A DNA stretch of 64,000 nucleotides from an uncultured Methanosarcinales archaeon (GTDB lineage: Archaea; Nanobdellota; Nanobdellia; Woesearchaeales; DSVV01). The notes below the pieces were generated by a model. The model worked only from the letters and a program-made list of their open reading frames with translations, searched no databases and had not been told where the DNA came from. This document shows, in pieces, positions 14,627-42,183 of the stretch. Position 1 is the first letter of the stretch. Every line of letters starts with the position of its first letter. Position numbers and translations under genes: made by a program. The stretch is from NCBI GenBank assembly GCA_964593285.1, contig CAZQHZ010000001.1, positions 2,124 to 66,123 on the forward strand, given 5' to 3'.

Positions 14627-14744
14627 GCGTCGGTAGTCTAACGGCTAGGATAGAGGCCTTCCACACGCTAGAATTAAAGATTCGCTGGTTATTTGCCAGG
14701 CGCGAAGAGAGCCTTTGATCCGGGTTCGAATCCCGGCCGACGCA
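14627..14744 (+). tRNA. tRNA-Gly(UCC) with a ~45-nt intron at the canonical 37/38 position
   Basis: Acceptor GCGTCGG/CCGACGC plus discriminator A; D arm GTCT-AACGGCTA-GGAT; anticodon stem GAGGC/GCCTT; loop CTTCCA|intron|A; T arm CCGGG-TTCGAAT-CCCGG. Exons closely resemble archaeal tRNA-Gly(UCC). 118 nt total, no encoded CCA. Confidence 0.8.
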
Positions 14745-14835: not shown

Positions 14836-17061
14836 ATGGCTTATGAATTAATAATTACTGAAAAACCTCAAGCATCATTAAAAATTGCATCTTTTTTAGC
14901 TAATGGAAAGCCAATTAAGAAAAATATTAATGGTGTTCCATATTATGAAATTACTCATTCTAATAAAGATATCGTCGTTGCATCAGCAGTTGGTCATTTA
15001 TATACTGTTGCTGAAATTAAAAAAGGGTGGAATTATCCTTCATTTGATGTAAAATGGGTTGCATCAAGTAAAGTAAATAAAGCTTCTGCTTTTACTTCAA
15101 AGTATGTTACAGCACTTAAAAAATTAGCAAAAGATGCAAATGAAATTACTGTTGCAACAGATTTTGATATTGAAGGTGAAGTTATTGGTTATAATGTTGT
15201 AAAACATATTTGTAAAAAAGATAATGCAAATAGAATGAAATTTTCAACTTTAACAAAAGATGAAATAATTAATGCTTATAAAAATAAAATGAATCAATTA
15301 GTATGGGGTCAGGTAAATGCAGGTTTAACTCGTCATGAACTTGATTGGTATTATGGTATTAATTTATCTAGGGCATTAACTTCGGCTGTTAAAAAAGCCG
15401 GTTCTTTTAAAATTTTATCTTCTGGAAGGGTTCAAGGTCCTGCATTAAAAATGCTTTGTGATAAAGAAAAGGAAATTTCAGATTTTAAGCCTGTCCCTTA
15501 TTTTGAAATAGAACTTATTGGAAATTTAAAAGAAAATGAAATTATTGCATTTCATGAATTAGATAAAATTTTTGATGAAAAAAAAGCATTTGAAATTATT
15601 GAAAAAACAAAAAATAATGATGGATTTGTAAGTGATGTTAATAAATCTTCATTTAAACAGCAACCACCATTTCCTTTTGATTTAACAACCCTTCAAACAG
15701 AAGCTTATAGAACATTAAAAATTCCACCAAAAAATACTTTAGAAATCGCTCAAGAATTATATATTGCAGGAGTTATTTCATATCCTAGAACTTCATCTCA
15801 GCAATTACCAAAAGAAATTGGCTTTTCTAAAATTTTATCTTTACTTTCAAACAATCCAAATTATAAAGAATTAGCTAAAAAATTATTATCTAAAAAAACA
15901 TTAAATCCAAATAATGGTAAAAAAACAGATCCAGCACATCCTGCAATTTATCCAACAGGTAATGTTGATGATTTAGATGGAAGGAAAGCAAAATTATATG
16001 ATTTAATTGTAAGACGATTTTTAGCTACATTTGCAGAACCTGCAATCAGAGAAACTGTAAAAATAAGTATAGATGTAAATTCTGAAAAATTTATTTCAAA
16101 AGGAACAAGAACAACATTTAAAGGGTGGCATGAATTTTATGCACATTTTGTAAAAATGGAAGAGCAAACAATGCCAAGCTGCAGTGTTAAAGATTTTATT
16201 AAAGTAAAAAAGATAAAAAAGCACGATAAAGAAACGCAGCCTCCAAAAAGATATACTCCAGCATCAATTATTAAAGAACTTGAAAAAAGAAACCTTGGAA
16301 CAAAATCAACTAGGGCAACAATTATTGATAATTTATTTTCAAGAGGCTATGTTAATGATAAATCAATTACTGTAACAGATTTGGGTTTTAAAACTTGCAA
16401 TACTTTAGAAAAATATTCTCCAACAATTTTAGATGAACAATTAACTCGTGAATTTGAAGAAGAAATGGAAAATATACGTAATAAGGAAACAAAAAAAGAA
16501 AAAGTTTTAGAAAAAGCAAAAAAAATTTTAACAGAAACTTTGACTGATTTTAAGAAAAAAGAAAAAGAAATAGGTAATGATTTAAAACAAGCAAATATTG
16601 AATCAATAAATGCACAGGCAACTATTGGTGATTGTCCTAATTGTGAAGATGGCAAAATTATGATTAAAAAAAGTAAATTTGGAAGGTTTTTGGCATGTAA
16701 TAAATATCCTGATTGTAAAACAACATTTAACATTCCAAATAAAGGAAATTTAAAATCAACAGATAAAGTTTGTGAAAAATGCAACTATAGTTTAATTTCT
16801 ATACAGCAACCAAGAAAAGCCCCTCAACAATTTTGCATTAATCCAAATTGTTCCTCTAAAACAAATGGTGAAAATGGAGAAGATATTAAATCTAATTATC
16901 CTGAAGAAAATATGACATGTCCTGTTTGTAATAAAGGAAAAATGGTTTTAAGAAAAGGATTTTATGGTGAGTTTTTAGGTTGCAATAATTATCCAAAATG
17001 TAAAACCATGATGAAAATTGTTAATGGAAAAGTTGATACAAACCCAATTACAAAAAAATAA
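14836..17061 (+). CDS. topA: DNA topoisomerase I (type IA) with C-terminal zinc-ribbon repeats
   Basis: 741 aa; Toprim N-terminus (LIITEKP...), catalytic region ...GVISYPRTSSQQLP... (active-site Tyr), and three C-terminal CxxC...CxxC zinc ribbons. Confidence 0.9.
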   Translation: MAYELIITEKPQASLKIASFLANGKPIKKNINGVPYYEITHSNKDIVVASAVGHLYTVAEIKKGWNYPSFDVKWVASSKVNKASAFTSKYVTALKKLAKDANEITVATDFDIEGEVIGYNVVKHICKKDNANRMKFSTLTKDEIINAYKNKMNQLVWGQVNAGLTRHELDWYYGINLSRALTSAVKKAGSFKILSSGRVQGPALKMLCDKEKEISDFKPVPYFEIELIGNLKENEIIAFHELDKIFDEKKAFEIIEKTKNNDGFVSDVNKSSFKQQPPFPFDLTTLQTEAYRTLKIPPKNTLEIAQELYIAGVISYPRTSSQQLPKEIGFSKILSLLSNNPNYKELAKKLLSKKTLNPNNGKKTDPAHPAIYPTGNVDDLDGRKAKLYDLIVRRFLATFAEPAIRETVKISIDVNSEKFISKGTRTTFKGWHEFYAHFVKMEEQTMPSCSVKDFIKVKKIKKHDKETQPPKRYTPASIIKELEKRNLGTKSTRATIIDNLFSRGYVNDKSITVTDLGFKTCNTLEKYSPTILDEQLTREFEEEMENIRNKETKKEKVLEKAKKILTETLTDFKKKEKEIGNDLKQANIESINAQATIGDCPNCEDGKIMIKKSKFGRFLACNKYPDCKTTFNIPNKGNLKSTDKVCEKCNYSLISIQQPRKAPQQFCINPNCSSKTNGENGEDIKSNYPEENMTCPVCNKGKMVLRKGFYGEFLGCNNYPKCKTMMKIVNGKVDTNPITKK

Positions 17062-17063
17062 TT

Positions 17064-17774
17064 TTATCCTCTAATTATTATTTCATCAAAATTAGGCCTT
17101 ATTAATTCTTCAATTTCTTCTAATTCTTTTTTAGTGTATATTTTTTCATTCATAAAAGATAAATCTAAAACGCTTCCTTTATTACAAAATTGTTGCATCA
17201 CATACCTTTTTGCACCTTTTAATTCTTTGCTAATAGTTATTAAATCTTCTTTTGTTAATAATTTTGGAATAACTGTTGTTCTAAATTCATAATCAATATT
17301 AGAATTTTTAATTAAAGAAATTGATTTTTTTATTTTTTCAATATCAACTGTTGTAATAGTTATTTTTTCATATGAATTCATTGGTCCTTTGATATCCATT
17401 GCTATATAATCAATTAATTTTTCATCAAGCATATCCCATAAAAGTTTTGGATTACTACCATTTGTATCAAGTTTTATTTTTAGATTTAATTTTTTTATTT
17501 CACGAAAAAAATCAATTAATTCAGGGTATAGTGTTGGTTCACCACCTGTTATAACAACAGCATCAATCCACTTTTTTTTTGAAATTAAATAGTCAATTAT
17601 CTCTTTTTCATCAATTGTTTTAATTTCTTTATATTTTAATACTAAATTAAAATTATGGCAATATCCACATCTAAAATTACAACCTCCAATGAAAATAACA
17701 CAAGATGTGTATGGTGGGTAATCTATTAGTGAAGTCTTTTGTATGCCTTTAATTGGAAGCATTTTAAAATTCAT
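17064..17774 (-). CDS. nrdG: Anaerobic ribonucleoside-triphosphate reductase activating protein (radical SAM)
   Basis: 236 aa; radical-SAM cluster motif CNFRCGYCHN near the N-terminus; directly downstream of nrdD. Confidence 0.85.
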   Translation of the reverse strand: MNFKMLPIKGIQKTSLIDYPPYTSCVIFIGGCNFRCGYCHNFNLVLKYKEIKTIDEKEIIDYLISKKKWIDAVVITGGEPTLYPELIDFFREIKKLNLKIKLDTNGSNPKLLWDMLDEKLIDYIAMDIKGPMNSYEKITITTVDIEKIKKSISLIKNSNIDYEFRTTVIPKLLTKEDLITISKELKGAKRYVMQQFCNKGSVLDLSFMNEKIYTKKELEEIEELIRPNFDEIIIRG

Positions 17775-18039
17775 CTAAATTTTTATTTTTAACAAAATTT
17801 TGAAATTCTTCAATGTCTGTAACTGAAGCTATTTTTTCACCATTTTTTAAAAATACAATTGTTGGAACTCCACTTACTTCATACTGCTTTGCTTTTTCTA
17901 GACCTTCTTTAGTTGTTGCATCTACTTCTTCTCCTTTAGCTAAAAGTTTTGGATTTTCTTTTAGCCATTCATGAATCTCTCCACAATTTGGACACATAGG
18001 TGTCATAAAAAATAAAAATTTATCAAACATTTTTATCAC
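17764..18039 (-). CDS. Small thioredoxin/glutaredoxin-like redoxin (CPNC active site)
   Basis: 91 aa; Cys pair CPNCGE, ...GVPTIVFLKNGEKI... thioredoxin-fold pattern; overlaps the nrdG start by 11 nt, between nrdD and nrdG. Confidence 0.6.
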   Translation of the reverse strand: MIKMFDKFLFFMTPMCPNCGEIHEWLKENPKLLAKGEEVDATTKEGLEKAKQYEVSGVPTIVFLKNGEKIASVTDIEEFQNFVKNKNLDEF

Positions 18040-18112: not shown

Positions 18113-20710
18113 TTATTTTTTACTAACATTAGCCAGTAGTTCTTTTTTAAAACAACTTTTTTCAATATTGTTTTCATCAAAAACAAGTCTTTCACTAAAT
18201 TCTTCTTTTTTCCCTTTATTCCAATTTTGAACAGGTCTATAGTAACCAACAATTCTTGAAAAAACTTCTGTTGGTTTATTACATGTTGGACAATCATGCT
18301 TTTCTCCTTTAATATAACCATGTTCATCGCAAATACTAAATGTTGGTGTTATTGAAAAATATGGAAGTCTTGTGTTATATGCAATCTTTTGAATCAATTT
18401 TTTACAAGATTCACCAGAACTTACTTTTTCACCCAAAAATGTATGAAAAATTGTACCGCCAGTATATAAATGTTGTATTTCATCTTGGTGTTCAATTGCT
18501 TCAATTAAGTTATCAGAATGGCCAACTGGAAGCTGAGTTGAATTTGTCAAATATGGTTCATCCTCTCCTGATGTTTTAATTTTTGGATACATCTTTTTAT
18601 CAAGTAAAGCAAATCTATAACTTGTTGATTCTGCAGGTGTTGCTTCTAAATTATATAAATTACTTGTTTCATTTTGAAATTCTAAACACATATCTCTCAT
18701 GAATTGTAGTGTTTCAATTGCTAAATTTTTTCCTTCACTAGTTGAAATATCTTTATCAATCAAATTCATTGCAGCTTCATTCATTCCACAAAGTCCAATG
18801 GTTGAAAAATGATTATTAAAAGTTCCAAGATATCTTTTAGTATATGGCATTAATCCTTTTTCAAGATTTAGATCTATCATTTTTCTTTTTATTTCAAGAG
18901 AATCTTTTGCAAGTAACATATATTGTTTTATTTTATCAAAAAACTCTTCTTTTGATTTTGCTTCAAATGCCAACCTATTAAGATTAATTGTTACAACACC
19001 AATTGATCCAGTACTATCTCCAGGTCCCCACATGCTTCCTGGTCTTTTCATTAAATCAAATTGGTTTAAATTAAGTCTACAGCACATTGCTCTGATAGAT
19101 TTTGGATCTAAATTTGATCCAATATAATTTTGAAAATATGGTGTTCCATACTTTGCTGTAACTTCAAACAATATTTTTGCATTTTCACTATCCCAATCAA
19201 AATTTTTTGTTAAATTATATGTTGGAATTGGAAATGAAAAAATTCTTCCAGTAGCATCTCCTTCAAGCATAACTTCTAAAAATGCTTTATTTATTATGTC
19301 CATTTCTTTTTGTAAATCGCCATATTTATAATCTACACGCTTTCCACCAATAATTGCTTTTTCATTTTTCATATCTTCAGGGACAACCCAATCAAATGTT
19401 AAATTTGAGAATGGATATTGTGAACCCCATCTTGATGGTATATTTAATGAAAATACTAATTGCTGCATACATTGTTTAACTTCTTTATAAGTCATTTTAT
19501 CTTCTCTAACAAATGGTGCAAGCAATGTATCAACACTTGAAAATGCTTGTGCTCCTGCAAATTCCATTTGTAAGCAACCTATGTAATTAACCATTTGATG
19601 AACTATTGTTCCCATATGTTTTGCACCTTTGCAATCAACTTTTCCAGGAACTCCACCAAATCCTTTCAATAATAAATTTTTCAAAGACCATCCAGCACAA
19701 TACCCGATAACACCATTAGTTAAGTCATGTATATGCATATATCCTTCTTTATGTGCTGTAGATATTGCTGGTGTGTATATATAATTGAGTATATAATTTG
19801 AAATTATTTTTCCAGATGTATATAATAATAAACCAGAAAATGAAAATTGTTCATTACTATTTTCATTAACTTTCCATGTTGCTTTATCTAAATATTCTTT
19901 AACTGTTGATTCAATTTCAATCATTGTATTTTTTGTTGCTCTAAGTTTTATTTGTTGTTGCCTATATAAAATATAACTTTTAACAGTTGTATAGTGTCCT
20001 TCTTCTGTTAAAACTTTTTCAACTAAATCTTGAACATTTTCAACTGTTGGAATATTTTTATCATCATATTTTTCATTTACCAATTGAACTACTTTTTGCC
20101 CAAGTTCTGCTGACAATTCTTTATCTTTTCCACCAACAGATTTTGCAGCTTTCCAAATAGCTTCAACTATCTTTTCTCCATCAAAATCAACAATTGAATT
20201 ATCTCTTTTTTTAACCTTATTTACTTTTAATTTTGTTTTAGGTAAAGGTTTGTCTTTTAAATTTTCAATCTCTTTTTGAAATGCTTCAATACTAGAAAAC
20301 CCTTTAAATACTGATGCAAATCTTAAATAGGAAATATGATCTAATTTTTTTAATTCATTAATAATCATCTTACCTAATTTTTTAGTTTCTATTTCATTTT
20401 CATCTAAAGTTCTAGATTTTGCTTCAATTTTTTCAACTAATTCATCAATAATTTTTTCATCAACAGATCTTTTTTCGCAGGCTTTTAAAATTCCAGATTT
20501 TAATTTTTCTCGATTAAACGGTTCTCTTTCACCATTTTTTTTAATAACATTAAGGTTAATAATCTCAATTCTTTCATATGTTGTAAATCGTTTACCGCAT
20601 TTTAAACATTCTCTTCTTCTTCTAGTGCTATCTTCATCAGAAGTGTTTCTTTTATCTATAACTTTTATTTCATTTGTATTACAATATGGGCATTTCATTT
20701 TATATATCAC
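18113..20710 (-). CDS. nrdD: Class III anaerobic ribonucleoside-triphosphate reductase fused to an N-terminal full-length NrdR-like domain (Zn ribbon + ATP cone), followed by a second ATP cone
   Basis: 865 aa, one ORF. Residues 1-150 align along their length with bacterial NrdR (CPYC...RRRRECLKCGKRFTTYER; REPFNREKLKSGILKACEKR; YLRFASVFKGFSSIEAFQKEI). Then a second ATP cone, the NrdD catalytic core, a C-terminal CPTC zinc site and the glycyl-radical motif RIVGYYRPV. Confidence 0.9.
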   Translation of the reverse strand: MIYKMKCPYCNTNEIKVIDKRNTSDEDSTRRRRECLKCGKRFTTYERIEIINLNVIKKNGEREPFNREKLKSGILKACEKRSVDEKIIDELVEKIEAKSRTLDENEIETKKLGKMIINELKKLDHISYLRFASVFKGFSSIEAFQKEIENLKDKPLPKTKLKVNKVKKRDNSIVDFDGEKIVEAIWKAAKSVGGKDKELSAELGQKVVQLVNEKYDDKNIPTVENVQDLVEKVLTEEGHYTTVKSYILYRQQQIKLRATKNTMIEIESTVKEYLDKATWKVNENSNEQFSFSGLLLYTSGKIISNYILNYIYTPAISTAHKEGYMHIHDLTNGVIGYCAGWSLKNLLLKGFGGVPGKVDCKGAKHMGTIVHQMVNYIGCLQMEFAGAQAFSSVDTLLAPFVREDKMTYKEVKQCMQQLVFSLNIPSRWGSQYPFSNLTFDWVVPEDMKNEKAIIGGKRVDYKYGDLQKEMDIINKAFLEVMLEGDATGRIFSFPIPTYNLTKNFDWDSENAKILFEVTAKYGTPYFQNYIGSNLDPKSIRAMCCRLNLNQFDLMKRPGSMWGPGDSTGSIGVVTINLNRLAFEAKSKEEFFDKIKQYMLLAKDSLEIKRKMIDLNLEKGLMPYTKRYLGTFNNHFSTIGLCGMNEAAMNLIDKDISTSEGKNLAIETLQFMRDMCLEFQNETSNLYNLEATPAESTSYRFALLDKKMYPKIKTSGEDEPYLTNSTQLPVGHSDNLIEAIEHQDEIQHLYTGGTIFHTFLGEKVSSGESCKKLIQKIAYNTRLPYFSITPTFSICDEHGYIKGEKHDCPTCNKPTEVFSRIVGYYRPVQNWNKGKKEEFSERLVFDENNIEKSCFKKELLANVSKK

Positions 20711-20740
20711 CTTTTTCCGTTTTTCATCACCAATCCATAA

Positions 20741-20756
20741 TTACAACATATGGTGT
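20741..20756. promoter_or_regulatory. NrdR-box-like palindrome (proximal), 31-46 bp upstream of the nrdD start
   Basis: TTACAACATATGGTGT matches the bacterial NrdR-box consensus acaCwAtATaTwGtgt at 12/16 positions. Confidence 0.35.
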
Positions 20757-20772
20757 TTTTGTTTTTTTTAAA

Positions 20773-20788
20773 CCACAAGATATAGTGT
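20773..20788. promoter_or_regulatory. NrdR-box-like palindrome (distal), centre 32 bp from the proximal box
   Basis: CCACAAGATATAGTGT matches the NrdR-box consensus at 14/16 positions; centre-to-centre distance to the proximal box is 32 bp, the spacing of tandem bacterial NrdR boxes. Confidence 0.45.
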
Positions 20789-20942
20789 TTTTATGATTTA
20801 GCTGGTTTATATATTTTTCGTAATTTTAATATCTATTTATTAAAATATTTTCTAAAAAATCGAAAATATAAACTAAATATTTTTTATTTTTTTAAATTGT
20901 GATATCAAAAATTTTATAAATAAGATAATATATAATTAACAT

Positions 20943-23003
20943 ATGAATTATATGGATAAATATAAAACAATTGGAAATAATTCAAATAATTATTTTGATA
21001 ATCAACCACCAGAACAAAAAATAGAATCAAAAATTGGAATTAAAGATATCGGACAAACAGTAACTGAAGGAAGTAGATTTGGAACACTAATTAAAACTTC
21101 TATGGATGCAATTAAAAAAGGAACTAGTCAAATTGAACTTCAATTGGGCATGGGCGGTGGTGCTGAAAATGTTGGTGCTGAAAGTTATGGTAATGAAGCA
21201 CGGCAAGCTTTAAGAGAAGTTGCAAGAGCTAATCAAATTAATTTTAGTTCAGTTCACGCACCAACACAAATTGGAAATTTATCAGGGTTTGATCAAAGAC
21301 AAAATAATTTTAGTGATGAAATACGGGCAAGTAGTATTGATGAAATAAAAAAAGCGATTAAATTTGCAGCTGATGTTGGTGGAAAAGCTGTTGTTGTACA
21401 CACAGGTGAATTTCAGCGAGATATGAGTGAAGCACAGTGGAATCGAGAAATTGGTGATGGTGAAGATAAAGTCCACGAATTTTTAAGTTATCCATCAGAA
21501 AAAGAGCAGCAAGTTCATTATTTAGTTGATAAAAGAACAGGTAAATTAATAACAGATGTTAAAAAAAATCAAGTTGTATATGAACCAGTTTATAAAACAC
21601 TTGAAGGTAATGATCATATTTTTGTTGATAGAGATGGCAATCCAATTGCTCATGATGAATACGATAAACGTGTTCCACTATTAAATGAAGATAAAACAGG
21701 TGTTAAAGTTGAAAGACGAGATTTTGAGTATTATAGAAAATTAGCAGATGAATATAATAAAAATTTTTTAAAGAATGGAAAACCTAAAAAAACAGCTGCA
21801 CAAATGTTTATTGAATCAAAATTACACAATCAAATAATGCAAAATCAAGGTTGGGCAAACTATCGAAATGAAGATGTTACGCAAACTAATGCATTATTAG
21901 AGCAAATTGATAAAGACATAGAATTTGTTGAAAAAAATAATATAGATAATTTAAGTGAAGAACAAAAAATTAGTTATTTAAGCAGTCAAAAATATATAGA
22001 TTTAAATGATGAAGATATGAAAAAAATAAAAAATAATACGCCAATTAGAGAAATTTTAAAAGATAGATATGATAAATTTTTAAAAAAACGAGATTATTCA
22101 ATGGATATGAATTCATCATATGAAACATCTGCAAAAGAGACACAAGAAACAATAAAAAATATCATGTCTGTTGAAAATTATGCAAAAGAAAAATCATTGA
22201 ATTCATATGCAGAACTTGGACTTTATGCAATGGAGGAAAGCAGTAGAAAAGATGTAAAAGATTCTGTTTTTGTTGCACCAGAAAATATTTTTCCAGAAAT
22301 GGGTTATGGAAGTCATCCTGAAGAATTAATAGAATTAGTAGAAGATGCAAGAAATAGAATGATAAAATTTTTAACAAATAAAAAAATTGAAGATCCAAAT
22401 GGTAGTGTTGATGAAAATGGTAATATAAAGATGATTAATAATCCATATTATCAAGGTATTAATGAAAAAGAAGCTGAAAAAAAAGCAAAAGAACACATAA
22501 AAGCAACTTTAGACACACAGCATGCTGGTATGTGGTGGAAGCATTTCCAGCCACTTCATGGTGAAACAACTGAGCAGAGGAAAAAAAGGTTTGATGAATG
22601 GTATTTGAAAATGATTGATAAAATGCATGAAAAAGATATAATTGGTAATATTCATTTAGTAGATGCAATAGGCGGGGGACATCATCATTTACCTGCAGGA
22701 CAAGGAAATTTACCTGTTGTAAAAGCTATGGAAAAATTGAAAGAAAAAGGTTTTAAAGGTTCAATAAATTCAGAAGCACATGGAGAAGAAGCTTTATTTG
22801 GTCCTGGAAGAATGCTTACAAAAACATGGGAGGCTTTTAATTCACCAATTTCTTTTTCAGATTATGGTATAAGTGCCCCAACACCTGCATTTGGTGATGT
22901 TTCAGGATTTTATGGTAATCATATTCAATCACCTTATTTTGCTTTTGGCTCATACGTTCCATCAAATGATTGGAGGCTTTGGAGCGAGGTACCCTTTGAA
23001 TAA
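20943..23003 (+). CDS. Xylose-isomerase-like TIM-barrel (sugar-phosphate isomerase/epimerase-like) protein with a ~380-aa internal insertion
   Basis: 686 aa; N-terminal segment (...SSVHAPTQIGN...EIKKAIKFAADVGGKAVVVHTGEF...) and C-terminal segment (...IGNIHLVDAIGGGHHHLPAGQGNLPVVKAMEKLKEKGF...) resemble halves of an AP-endonuclease-2/xylose-isomerase TIM barrel; the ~380 residues between have no recognisable domain. Confidence 0.45.
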   Translation: MNYMDKYKTIGNNSNNYFDNQPPEQKIESKIGIKDIGQTVTEGSRFGTLIKTSMDAIKKGTSQIELQLGMGGGAENVGAESYGNEARQALREVARANQINFSSVHAPTQIGNLSGFDQRQNNFSDEIRASSIDEIKKAIKFAADVGGKAVVVHTGEFQRDMSEAQWNREIGDGEDKVHEFLSYPSEKEQQVHYLVDKRTGKLITDVKKNQVVYEPVYKTLEGNDHIFVDRDGNPIAHDEYDKRVPLLNEDKTGVKVERRDFEYYRKLADEYNKNFLKNGKPKKTAAQMFIESKLHNQIMQNQGWANYRNEDVTQTNALLEQIDKDIEFVEKNNIDNLSEEQKISYLSSQKYIDLNDEDMKKIKNNTPIREILKDRYDKFLKKRDYSMDMNSSYETSAKETQETIKNIMSVENYAKEKSLNSYAELGLYAMEESSRKDVKDSVFVAPENIFPEMGYGSHPEELIELVEDARNRMIKFLTNKKIEDPNGSVDENGNIKMINNPYYQGINEKEAEKKAKEHIKATLDTQHAGMWWKHFQPLHGETTEQRKKRFDEWYLKMIDKMHEKDIIGNIHLVDAIGGGHHHLPAGQGNLPVVKAMEKLKEKGFKGSINSEAHGEEALFGPGRMLTKTWEAFNSPISFSDYGISAPTPAFGDVSGFYGNHIQSPYFAFGSYVPSNDWRLWSEVPFE

Positions 23004-42058: not shown

Positions 42059-42183
42059 TGCGGGGAGTAGGACTCGAACCCACGTAAGCACTAAGCTAAC
42101 AGGTGTCTTTATTTCATTGTAATTTTACTCATCACACCTAAAATACCTAAGCCTGTCCCGTTTGACCACTCCGGCATCCCCGC
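42059..42183 (-). tRNA. tRNA-Leu(UAG), type II (long variable arm), with a 41-nt intron at position 37/38
   Basis: Reverse complement: acceptor GCGGGGA/TCCCCGC plus A; D arm CCG-GAGTGGTCAAA-CGG; anticodon stem ACAGG/CCTGT; loop CTTAGG|intron|A; 15-nt variable arm with AGC/GCT stem; T arm GTGGG-TTCGAGT-CCTAC. Intron TATTTTAGGTGTGATGAGTAAAATTACAATGAAATAAAGAC. Confidence 0.8.

Follow-up and report, generated by a model that had tools for sequence, protein, structure and literature searches.

The fused nrdR-nrdD gene

The 64 kb stretch of contig CAZQHZ010000001.1 analysed here (the window) contains an archaeal operon of the DPANN, Woesearchaeota type with the gene order nrdRD-trx-nrdG. In its first gene, a complete NrdR-type module, consisting of a zinc (Zn) ribbon and an ATP-cone, is joined in frame to NrdD, the class III ribonucleotide reductase (RNR), which has an ATP-cone of its own. 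The features of this gene are as follows, with confidence in the AlphaFold model expressed as the predicted local distance difference test score (pLDDT).

18113..20698, minus strand: fused nrdR-nrdD coding sequence, stop codon included; 861 aa from the ATG at 20698
20707..20711, minus strand: Shine-Dalgarno-like GGTGA, 8 nt 5' of the ATG; GGTGA or GGAG counterparts are found in related loci
20573..20698, minus strand: NrdR-type Zn ribbon, aa 1-42, with C3, C6, C31 and C34 (PF22811, 63 bits, cutoff 27.2)
20258..20557, minus strand: ATP-cone 1, NrdR-type, aa 48-147, within the TIGR00244 match (aa 1-147)
20225..20257, minus strand: Lys/Pro-rich linker, aa 148-158, without a start codon or Shine-Dalgarno site; pLDDT <50 at 149-155
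19937..20224, minus strand: ATP-cone 2, the allosteric cone of RNR type, aa 159-254 (Pfam and NCBIfam), matching the cones of 5olk and 9d3x
18182..19864, minus strand: class III reductase catalytic core, aa 279-839 (PF13597, 609 bits; NF006126, 1027 bits)
18239..18256, minus strand: glycyl-radical motif RIVGYY, aa 815-820, inside the catalytic core

The original prediction, made from the DNA sequence alone, described a protein of 865 aa. The open reading frame (ORF) list does include an uninterrupted frame of this length starting at GTG 20710 (18113..20710, minus strand), and the single frame holds; however, translation more probably begins at the ATG at 20698 because this codon coincides with position 1 of the NrdR model, is preceded at 8 nt by GGTGA, and gives an 861-aa product that has a database twin. 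The product is 100 % identical to P0001 (MFP4402792.1, from a metagenome-assembled genome of a Candidatus Woesearchaeota archaeon), which is also 861 aa.

The prediction that the first ~150 residues are a co-linear homologue of NrdR was borne out. NCBIfam model TIGR00244 (NrdR) matches with 176.4 bits (cutoff 124.65) over model positions 1-147 of 147, and aa 1-150 align without gaps to the NrdR of Escherichia coli (PDB 9fzf, E 5.7e-40). The Zn-ribbon and cone peptides that had been quoted are present in the translation, and the second ATP-cone and the glycyl-radical reductase follow in frame, as had been claimed. Pfam recognises Zn_ribbon_NrdR (63 bits), two ATP-cone stretches (139 bits) and NRDD (609 bits), and NF006126 (NrdD) covers aa 164-845 with 1027 bits (cutoff 548). 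Near RIVGYY lies a Cys-rich metal site (C790, C803, C806); all of 49 aligned fusions have C790 and C803, and the consensus of the alignment retains the RIVGYY stretch. By every sequence criterion except standing free, the N-terminal module is an NrdR.

An AlphaFold model of the protein (mean pLDDT 80) resolves the Zn ribbon, cone 1, cone 2 and the reductase core as distinct confident blocks, separated by low-confidence linkers at residues 43-46, 149-155 and 254-259. When searched with Foldseek, the core retrieved solved NrdD structures (E 1e-31) and the N-terminus retrieved NrdR structures, and no PDB entry spanned both the NrdR and the NrdD parts. The linker between the two parts, KDKPLPKTKLKVNKV, lacks a Shine-Dalgarno site and any in-frame ATG, GTG or TTG, and production of a separate reductase by internal initiation is therefore impossible.

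In the structure of Streptomyces coelicolor NrdR with DNA, R12, R26-29 and R37 contact the backbone, and D15 and R17 provide base specificity (PMC9110341). The window protein has K12, D15, R17, R26-29 and R37 at these positions. None of the 49 fusions deviates at R17, R27-29, R37 or the four cysteines, and conservation is at least 90 % at K12, D15 and R26. The nucleotide-site residues V51, K53, E59, F61, K65, F127 and V130 are also present, the first five being those of the inner site. A scan of 378 kb around the fused genes, window included, revealed no other NrdR-like Zn motif.

Fused, split and single-cone forms in related genomes

A search of 5.8 billion proteins, clustered at 90 % identity, identified more than 100 clusters with the architecture PF22811 + ATP-cone + NRDD. 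Where the source is named, it is either a DPANN-type archaeon (Woesearchaeota, Nanoarchaeia/Nanobdellota or Aenigmatarchaeota) or an unspecified 'archaeon'. Some members carry the Joint Genome Institute (JGI) product name 'anaerobic ribonucleoside-triphosphate reductase/transcriptional regulator NrdR', and the domain combination is already registered in databases in the form of JGI product names and a Pfam architecture. The cluster that includes the window protein has members from three independent assemblies, and there, too, no stop separates the NrdR part from NrdD. A 449-aa fragment in this cluster (P0272) has been given the name 'transcriptional regulator NrdR, partial [bacterium]' by the Prokaryotic Genome Annotation Pipeline (PGAP); fragments of the fusion are therefore mislabelled.

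To the window were added the best 80 of 446 relatives in GTDB, making 81 loci. Fused and split forms were distinguished by a stop codon after the Zn ribbon; full-length tblastn coverage (1-861) includes split loci. The gene is truly fused in 35 of the 81 loci, window counted, which represent species-level genomes from several DPANN phyla, and a further fused gene (L071) is truncated at the contig end. In 39 loci, L072 among them, nrdR is a gene of its own (145-167 aa) directly 5' of nrdD. The remainder are three archaeal nrdD loci without an NrdR module (L053, L056 and L078), a bacterial nrdD with boxes and no adjoining nrdR (L077), and two loci that begin at a contig end and are too cut to be assigned to a class (L037 and L080). 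Exact-protein look-ups of four close 'non-fused' relatives found nrdR 2-155 nt 5' of nrdD, followed by trx and nrdG. The NrdR module shares 45-55 % identity with free NrdRs, using representatives at 50 % identity. These representatives were dropped as a measure of prevalence, as the fused proteins collapse into very few clusters. A control set of non-fused NrdDs from metagenomes was also dropped, as it consisted mostly of distant loci (52-62 % identity) with unassigned taxonomy, many of them labelled human gut.

The fusions are of two types. Type A proteins, which include that of the window, are about 800-890 aa and contain both the cone of NrdR and that of the reductase. Type B proteins (P0043-P0119; loci L026, L033, L038-L040, L047, L049, L050, L054, L057, L060 and L067) are about 750 aa and have a single cone, which is 49-59 % identical to cone 2 of the window protein and no more than 32 % identical to cone 1. 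Hence, type B has lost the cone belonging to NrdR, leaving the Zn ribbon directly on the allosteric cone of the reductase. Seven fusions (P0036, P0038, P0039, P0047, P0073, P0081 and P0082; 1070-1280 aa) are 200-400 aa longer than the others, and in P0038, P0047, P0073, P0081 and P0082 the intein domains PF14890 and PF14528 lie inside the reductase core.

In a neighbour-joining tree of the NrdD core, which is rough and of low resolution, fused and split forms are interleaved, and several fusion or fission events are therefore suggested. Three loci (L022, L068 and L072), from Candidatus Muiribacteriota / Muiribacterium halophilum, are on bacterial contigs and have a split nrdR-nrdD pair, the products of which are 62-66 % identical to DPANN proteins. 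The L072 promoter is sigma70-like (TTGACT...TATACT), and the L022 boxes are about 41 bp apart, counted by eye. The Muiribacteriota gene pair suggests transfer between domains.

Tandem NrdR boxes at the promoter

Two 16 bp palindromes resembling the bacterial NrdR box and an archaeal promoter element, comprising a transcription factor B recognition element (BRE) and a TATA box, precede the fused gene.

20773..20788, minus strand: NrdR box 1, ACACTATATCTTGTGG on the coding strand, 22.2 bits, over the predicted transcription start
20741..20756, minus strand: NrdR box 2, ACACCATATGTTGTAA on the coding strand, 16.2 bits, in the 5' leader
20806..20820, minus strand: archaeal BRE/TATA-like element, CGAAAAATATATAAA, read from the sequence, the TATA position being backed by 61 related loci

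In its plus-strand form, box 1 (CCACAAGATATAGTGT) has 2 mismatches to the bacterial consensus ACACWATATWTWGTGT, and box 2 (TTACAACATATGGTGT) has 4. The distance from the start of one to the start of the other is 32 bp, and the 14/16 and 12/16 matches at this spacing that had been reported were thus confirmed. How far the palindromes stand out from an AT-rich background depends on whether they are counted singly or as a pair. Single boxes with up to 3 mismatches are at chance level, 15 being found and 13.9 expected in this 25 % GC window, and the pair statistic alone is therefore informative. The 64 kb contain a single pair (≤2 and ≤4 mismatches, spacing 30-33), for which an order-1 Markov model predicts 0.0033 (1 of 300 simulations), and its score of 38.4 bits with a position weight matrix was reached by none of the 63,635 other positions in the window. 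We read the two 16-mers as a genuine tandem NrdR operator.

When the usual archaeal distance from TATA to the transcription start is applied, the start is predicted to lie within box 1, with box 2 at about +27 to +43. Archaeal repressors that act by blocking the recruitment of polymerase classically bind at this position. The placement also parallels that in bacteria, where NrdR boxes lie over the core promoter (PMC9110341; bioRxiv 10.1101/2025.03.28.645925). Immediately past box 2, the leader includes a mini-ORF of three codons (ATG GAT TGG TGA; 20727..20738, minus strand). The four closest loci (L001-L004) share its ATG-N6-TGA frame but differ in the inner codons, and L005 has ATG CAT TAG. 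The mini-ORF might encode a leader peptide or might simply be a conserved element of the untranslated region.

Enrichment of boxes in the related loci was assessed using the bacterial consensus with up to 3 mismatches, which, being fixed and bacterial, makes the test independent of the trained matrix. The 200 nt upstream of the 35 fused genes contain 8.0 matches per kb vs 0.048 per kb in the flanks (371 kb), and 31 of these loci have at least one match. For 36 split loci the corresponding values are 7.0 and 0.033 per kb, with at least one match in 32. Overall, boxes are enriched ~170-fold upstream in these 71 loci. Three fused loci have no boxes within 250 nt and have them 310-470 nt upstream instead. 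The consensus of the matrix built from the collected sites, ACACAATATATTGTGT, is that of the bacterial NrdR box. Pairs were also found in genomes of 50-62 % GC, and the conserved feature of the boxes is the sequence ACAC...GTGT, beyond mere complementarity.

The spacing of the pairs peaks at 31-32 bp, with minor classes of 33, 41, 54-56 and 85-87 bp. The 54-56 and 85-87 bp classes arise because some loci (L015, L021, L038, L039, L041, L058, L060 and L074) have a third box 5' of the TATA, 54-56 bp from box 1 and 85-87 bp from box 2, such that the TATA is bracketed by operators. In 61 loci, TATA-like octamers peak 22-28 nt 5' of the first base of box 1. All 12 type B fusions have a box pair. Boxes are absent from the three archaeal nrdD loci that lack an NrdR module, and in split loci they are found 5' of nrdR, not of nrdD. 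As about half of the relatives carry a split nrdR before nrdD with the same boxes, we regard the fusion as a merged, derived form of an nrdR-nrdD-trx-nrdG operon. A search for further regulon members, covering about 700 kb of flanks and the rest of the window, found no other paired boxes; single matches in the window are, as noted, at chance level.

The remainder of the operon consists of two genes.

17764..18039, minus strand: thioredoxin-like gene, 91 aa, second in the operon; the same slot is filled in related loci
17064..17774, minus strand: nrdG, activating radical-SAM enzyme, 236 aa (TIGR02495 NrdG2, 217 bits, cutoff 131)

No further RNR gene was found among the large ORFs of the window. 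A topoisomerase I gene with C4 zinc ribbons (14836..17061, plus strand) converges on the end of the operon. The topA gene of Pseudomonas aeruginosa carries an NrdR box, and none was found near the window gene. A divergent gene (20943..23003, plus strand) encoding 686 aa, in which the sole recognised domain is a xylose-isomerase-like TIM barrel, has a 244 nt intergenic region in common with the nrd promoter. Rfam identifies two tRNA genes of 118 and 125 nt (14627..14744, plus strand; 42059..42183, minus strand), both missed by ARAGORN in bacterial mode, which reported zero tRNAs. Both are probably intron-bearing, in keeping with an archaeal genome, and the window is assigned to the archaea because of these genes and the BRE/TATA-like promoter elements.

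Proposed self-repression, alternatives and known systems

The best-supported reading is that the fused reductase represses its own operon as dATP rises relative to ATP, and we put the probability of this at roughly 0.65. The DNA binding, nucleotide dependence, oligomeric state and transcription start that it involves are ones that we infer. NrdD is a dimer. When dATP increases relative to ATP, nucleotide would occupy the cone or cones and two NrdD dimers would join as a dimer of dimers, the four N-terminal modules of which would form two Zn-ribbon pairs. These pairs would clamp boxes 1 and 2, blocking RNA polymerase recruitment or the start of transcription, and the operon would be shut off by its own enzyme while the reductase cone throttles catalysis on the same nucleotide signal. 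Because repressor and enzyme are one chain, the dose of the repressor would be the dose of the enzyme, a direct autogenous feedback.

The proposal is modelled on bacterial NrdR, which binds DNA as a tetramer in which each Zn-ribbon pair reads one box and cone pairs join the halves, and ATP alone leads to non-binding oligomers while dATP together with ATP leads to the binding form (PMC9110341). The NrdD of Prevotella copri forms a dATP-induced tetramer via its cones (PMC11226230; PDB 8p28).

Several points weigh against self-repression. The tyrosine that shifts between the ATP and dATP states (Y131 in E. coli, Y128 in S. coelicolor) is F131 in the window protein, and a tetramer of 100 kDa subunits on DNA is bulkier than the characterised NrdR complexes, a possible steric constraint. 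The transcription start is placed by TATA spacing alone, and the box matrix was partly derived from the loci to which it was applied. A free NrdR may also be encoded elsewhere in fusion-bearing genomes, the scan for Zn motifs having covered 378 kb of fused loci.

A more novel reading is that the glycyl-radical reductase is a bifunctional 'trigger enzyme' that acts as its own dATP/ATP-sensing repressor, with a single cone governing both catalysis and operator binding in type B. To this we give slightly better than even odds.

Alternatively, the NrdR-like module might be a mere extra allosteric or oligomerisation module, with the boxes bound by a free NrdR encoded elsewhere. ATP-cones are indeed mobile, are often duplicated in RNRs and act through oligomerisation (PMC11226230); roughly one in two related genomes encodes a free NrdR beside nrdD, and the scans of genomes for NrdR were limited to the regions around the loci. 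However, invariant DNA contacts in the Zn ribbons of 49 fusions are hard to explain without DNA binding, the free nrdR of the split genomes is the very gene that became fused, and there is no second NrdR motif in the 378 kb around fused genes. Type B, which kept the Zn ribbon and lost the cone, is the opposite of what an extra cone would predict. We consider this explanation unlikely.

Somewhat less probable again is that the fused ORF is a co-expression device, from which cleavage or recoding at the linker releases an ordinary NrdR and an ordinary NrdD. Type B proteins have no complete NrdR to release, and for them this is impossible. In addition, the linker varies among homologues, lacks both an internal start codon and a Shine-Dalgarno site, and showed no sign of a protease site or of recoding. 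What can be said for release is that the linker is predicted to be disordered (pLDDT <50, residues 149-155) and that the interleaving of split and fused forms on the rough NrdD tree makes the two states seem functionally interchangeable.

It is highly improbable that the palindromes arose by chance in AT-rich DNA or are RNA-structure elements of the leader. Though single boxes (≤3 mismatches) are at chance level in the window and box 2 probably forms part of the transcript, no second such pair occurs in the window, the ~170-fold enrichment across 71 loci includes genomes of 50-62 % GC, the ACAC...GTGT sequence rather than only complementarity is conserved, and the 31-32 bp phasing is fixed, which effectively refutes both versions. 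An assembly or sequencing artefact, in which a stop was lost or a frame shifted between adjoining nrdR and nrdD, is conceivable in that gaps of 2-20 nt separate the genes in relatives and one error could fuse them, but it is effectively refuted by 35 species-level genomes and more than 100 protein clusters from independent projects, by the recovery of the window protein itself in three independent assemblies, and by a linker that is a distinct coding segment, and we give it virtually no weight.

Should the fusion bind its operator, an essential pathway would have a new enzyme-repressor ('trigger enzyme'), an archaeal BRE/TATA promoter would be under the control of a bacterial-type repressor that occupies the transcription start, and a stable, naturally tethered NrdR would become available for structural work. 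Free NrdR is notoriously unstable on purification (bioRxiv 10.1101/2025.03.28.645925). If the trigger-enzyme reading is true, allosteric and transcriptional feedback on dNTP supply would be coupled more compactly than in any other system known, and the fusions would provide a natural model in which to dissect how an ATP-cone signals to two outputs.

NrdR has been described as rare but present in archaea (PMC9110341, PMC3019208). The original prediction that an NrdR domain and its operator layout are unexpected in an archaeal context was thus overstated, all the more so as nrdR-nrdD operons with boxes are common in DPANN. Recent papers on NrdR describe it as rare or absent in archaea and mention no fusion to an RNR; full-text literature searches, from whose coverage subscription-only journals are mostly missing, found no paper describing an NrdR-NrdD fusion. 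The present data revise the view of NrdR as rare in archaea, as the nrdR-nrdD unit, split or fused and with canonical boxes, appears common in DPANN.

The fusion is a variant of a known regulatory system and not a new kind. The textbook example of one mobile domain that controls both the expression and the activity of an enzyme is provided by NrdR and the RNR ATP-cone, in two separate proteins. The fusion is of interest to the RNR field because a single protein, and in type B a single cone, combines both ATP-cone outputs. Like the NrdRs of E. coli and S. coelicolor (PDB 7P3F, 9FZF), the window module consists of a Zn ribbon and an ATP-cone (40-44 % identity) with the same DNA-contact residues, and its operator has the same 16 bp palindrome consensus and 31-32 bp phasing, with boxes over the core promoter or start of an nrd operon. 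Unlike them, it is not a free-standing protein of 150-200 aa and is covalently joined to the reductase that it would regulate; its host is archaeal with a BRE/TATA promoter, and it has F131 in place of Y131. The structure PDB 9a6n models a Soj-NrdR complex, a hint that NrdR has partners beyond DNA.

An nrdR as the first gene of an autoregulated nrd operon is known from nrdRJ of S. coelicolor and nrdR-nrdB-nrdA of haloarchaea (PMC3019208). The split DPANN loci (L161-L167 and the 39 GTDB loci), with boxes 5' of nrdR, follow this pattern. In the window, unlike in those operons, there is no stop or gap, the product is one polypeptide, and the partner is a class III NrdD rather than a class I or II reductase.

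In the trigger enzymes PutA, BirA and NadR, one polypeptide catalyses a pathway step and represses the pathway genes in response to a metabolite. Their folds and DNA-binding domains are unrelated to those of NrdR-NrdD, for which we infer DNA binding. Finally, other RNR fusions, namely an ATP-cone or glutaredoxin on NrdB and the eukaryotic NrdD-NrdG (PMC5794259, PMC3019208), likewise show regulatory or accessory domains accreting in modular fashion at RNR termini, and the mobility of the ATP-cone. Unlike the window fusion, these add no DNA-binding domain and no link to transcription.

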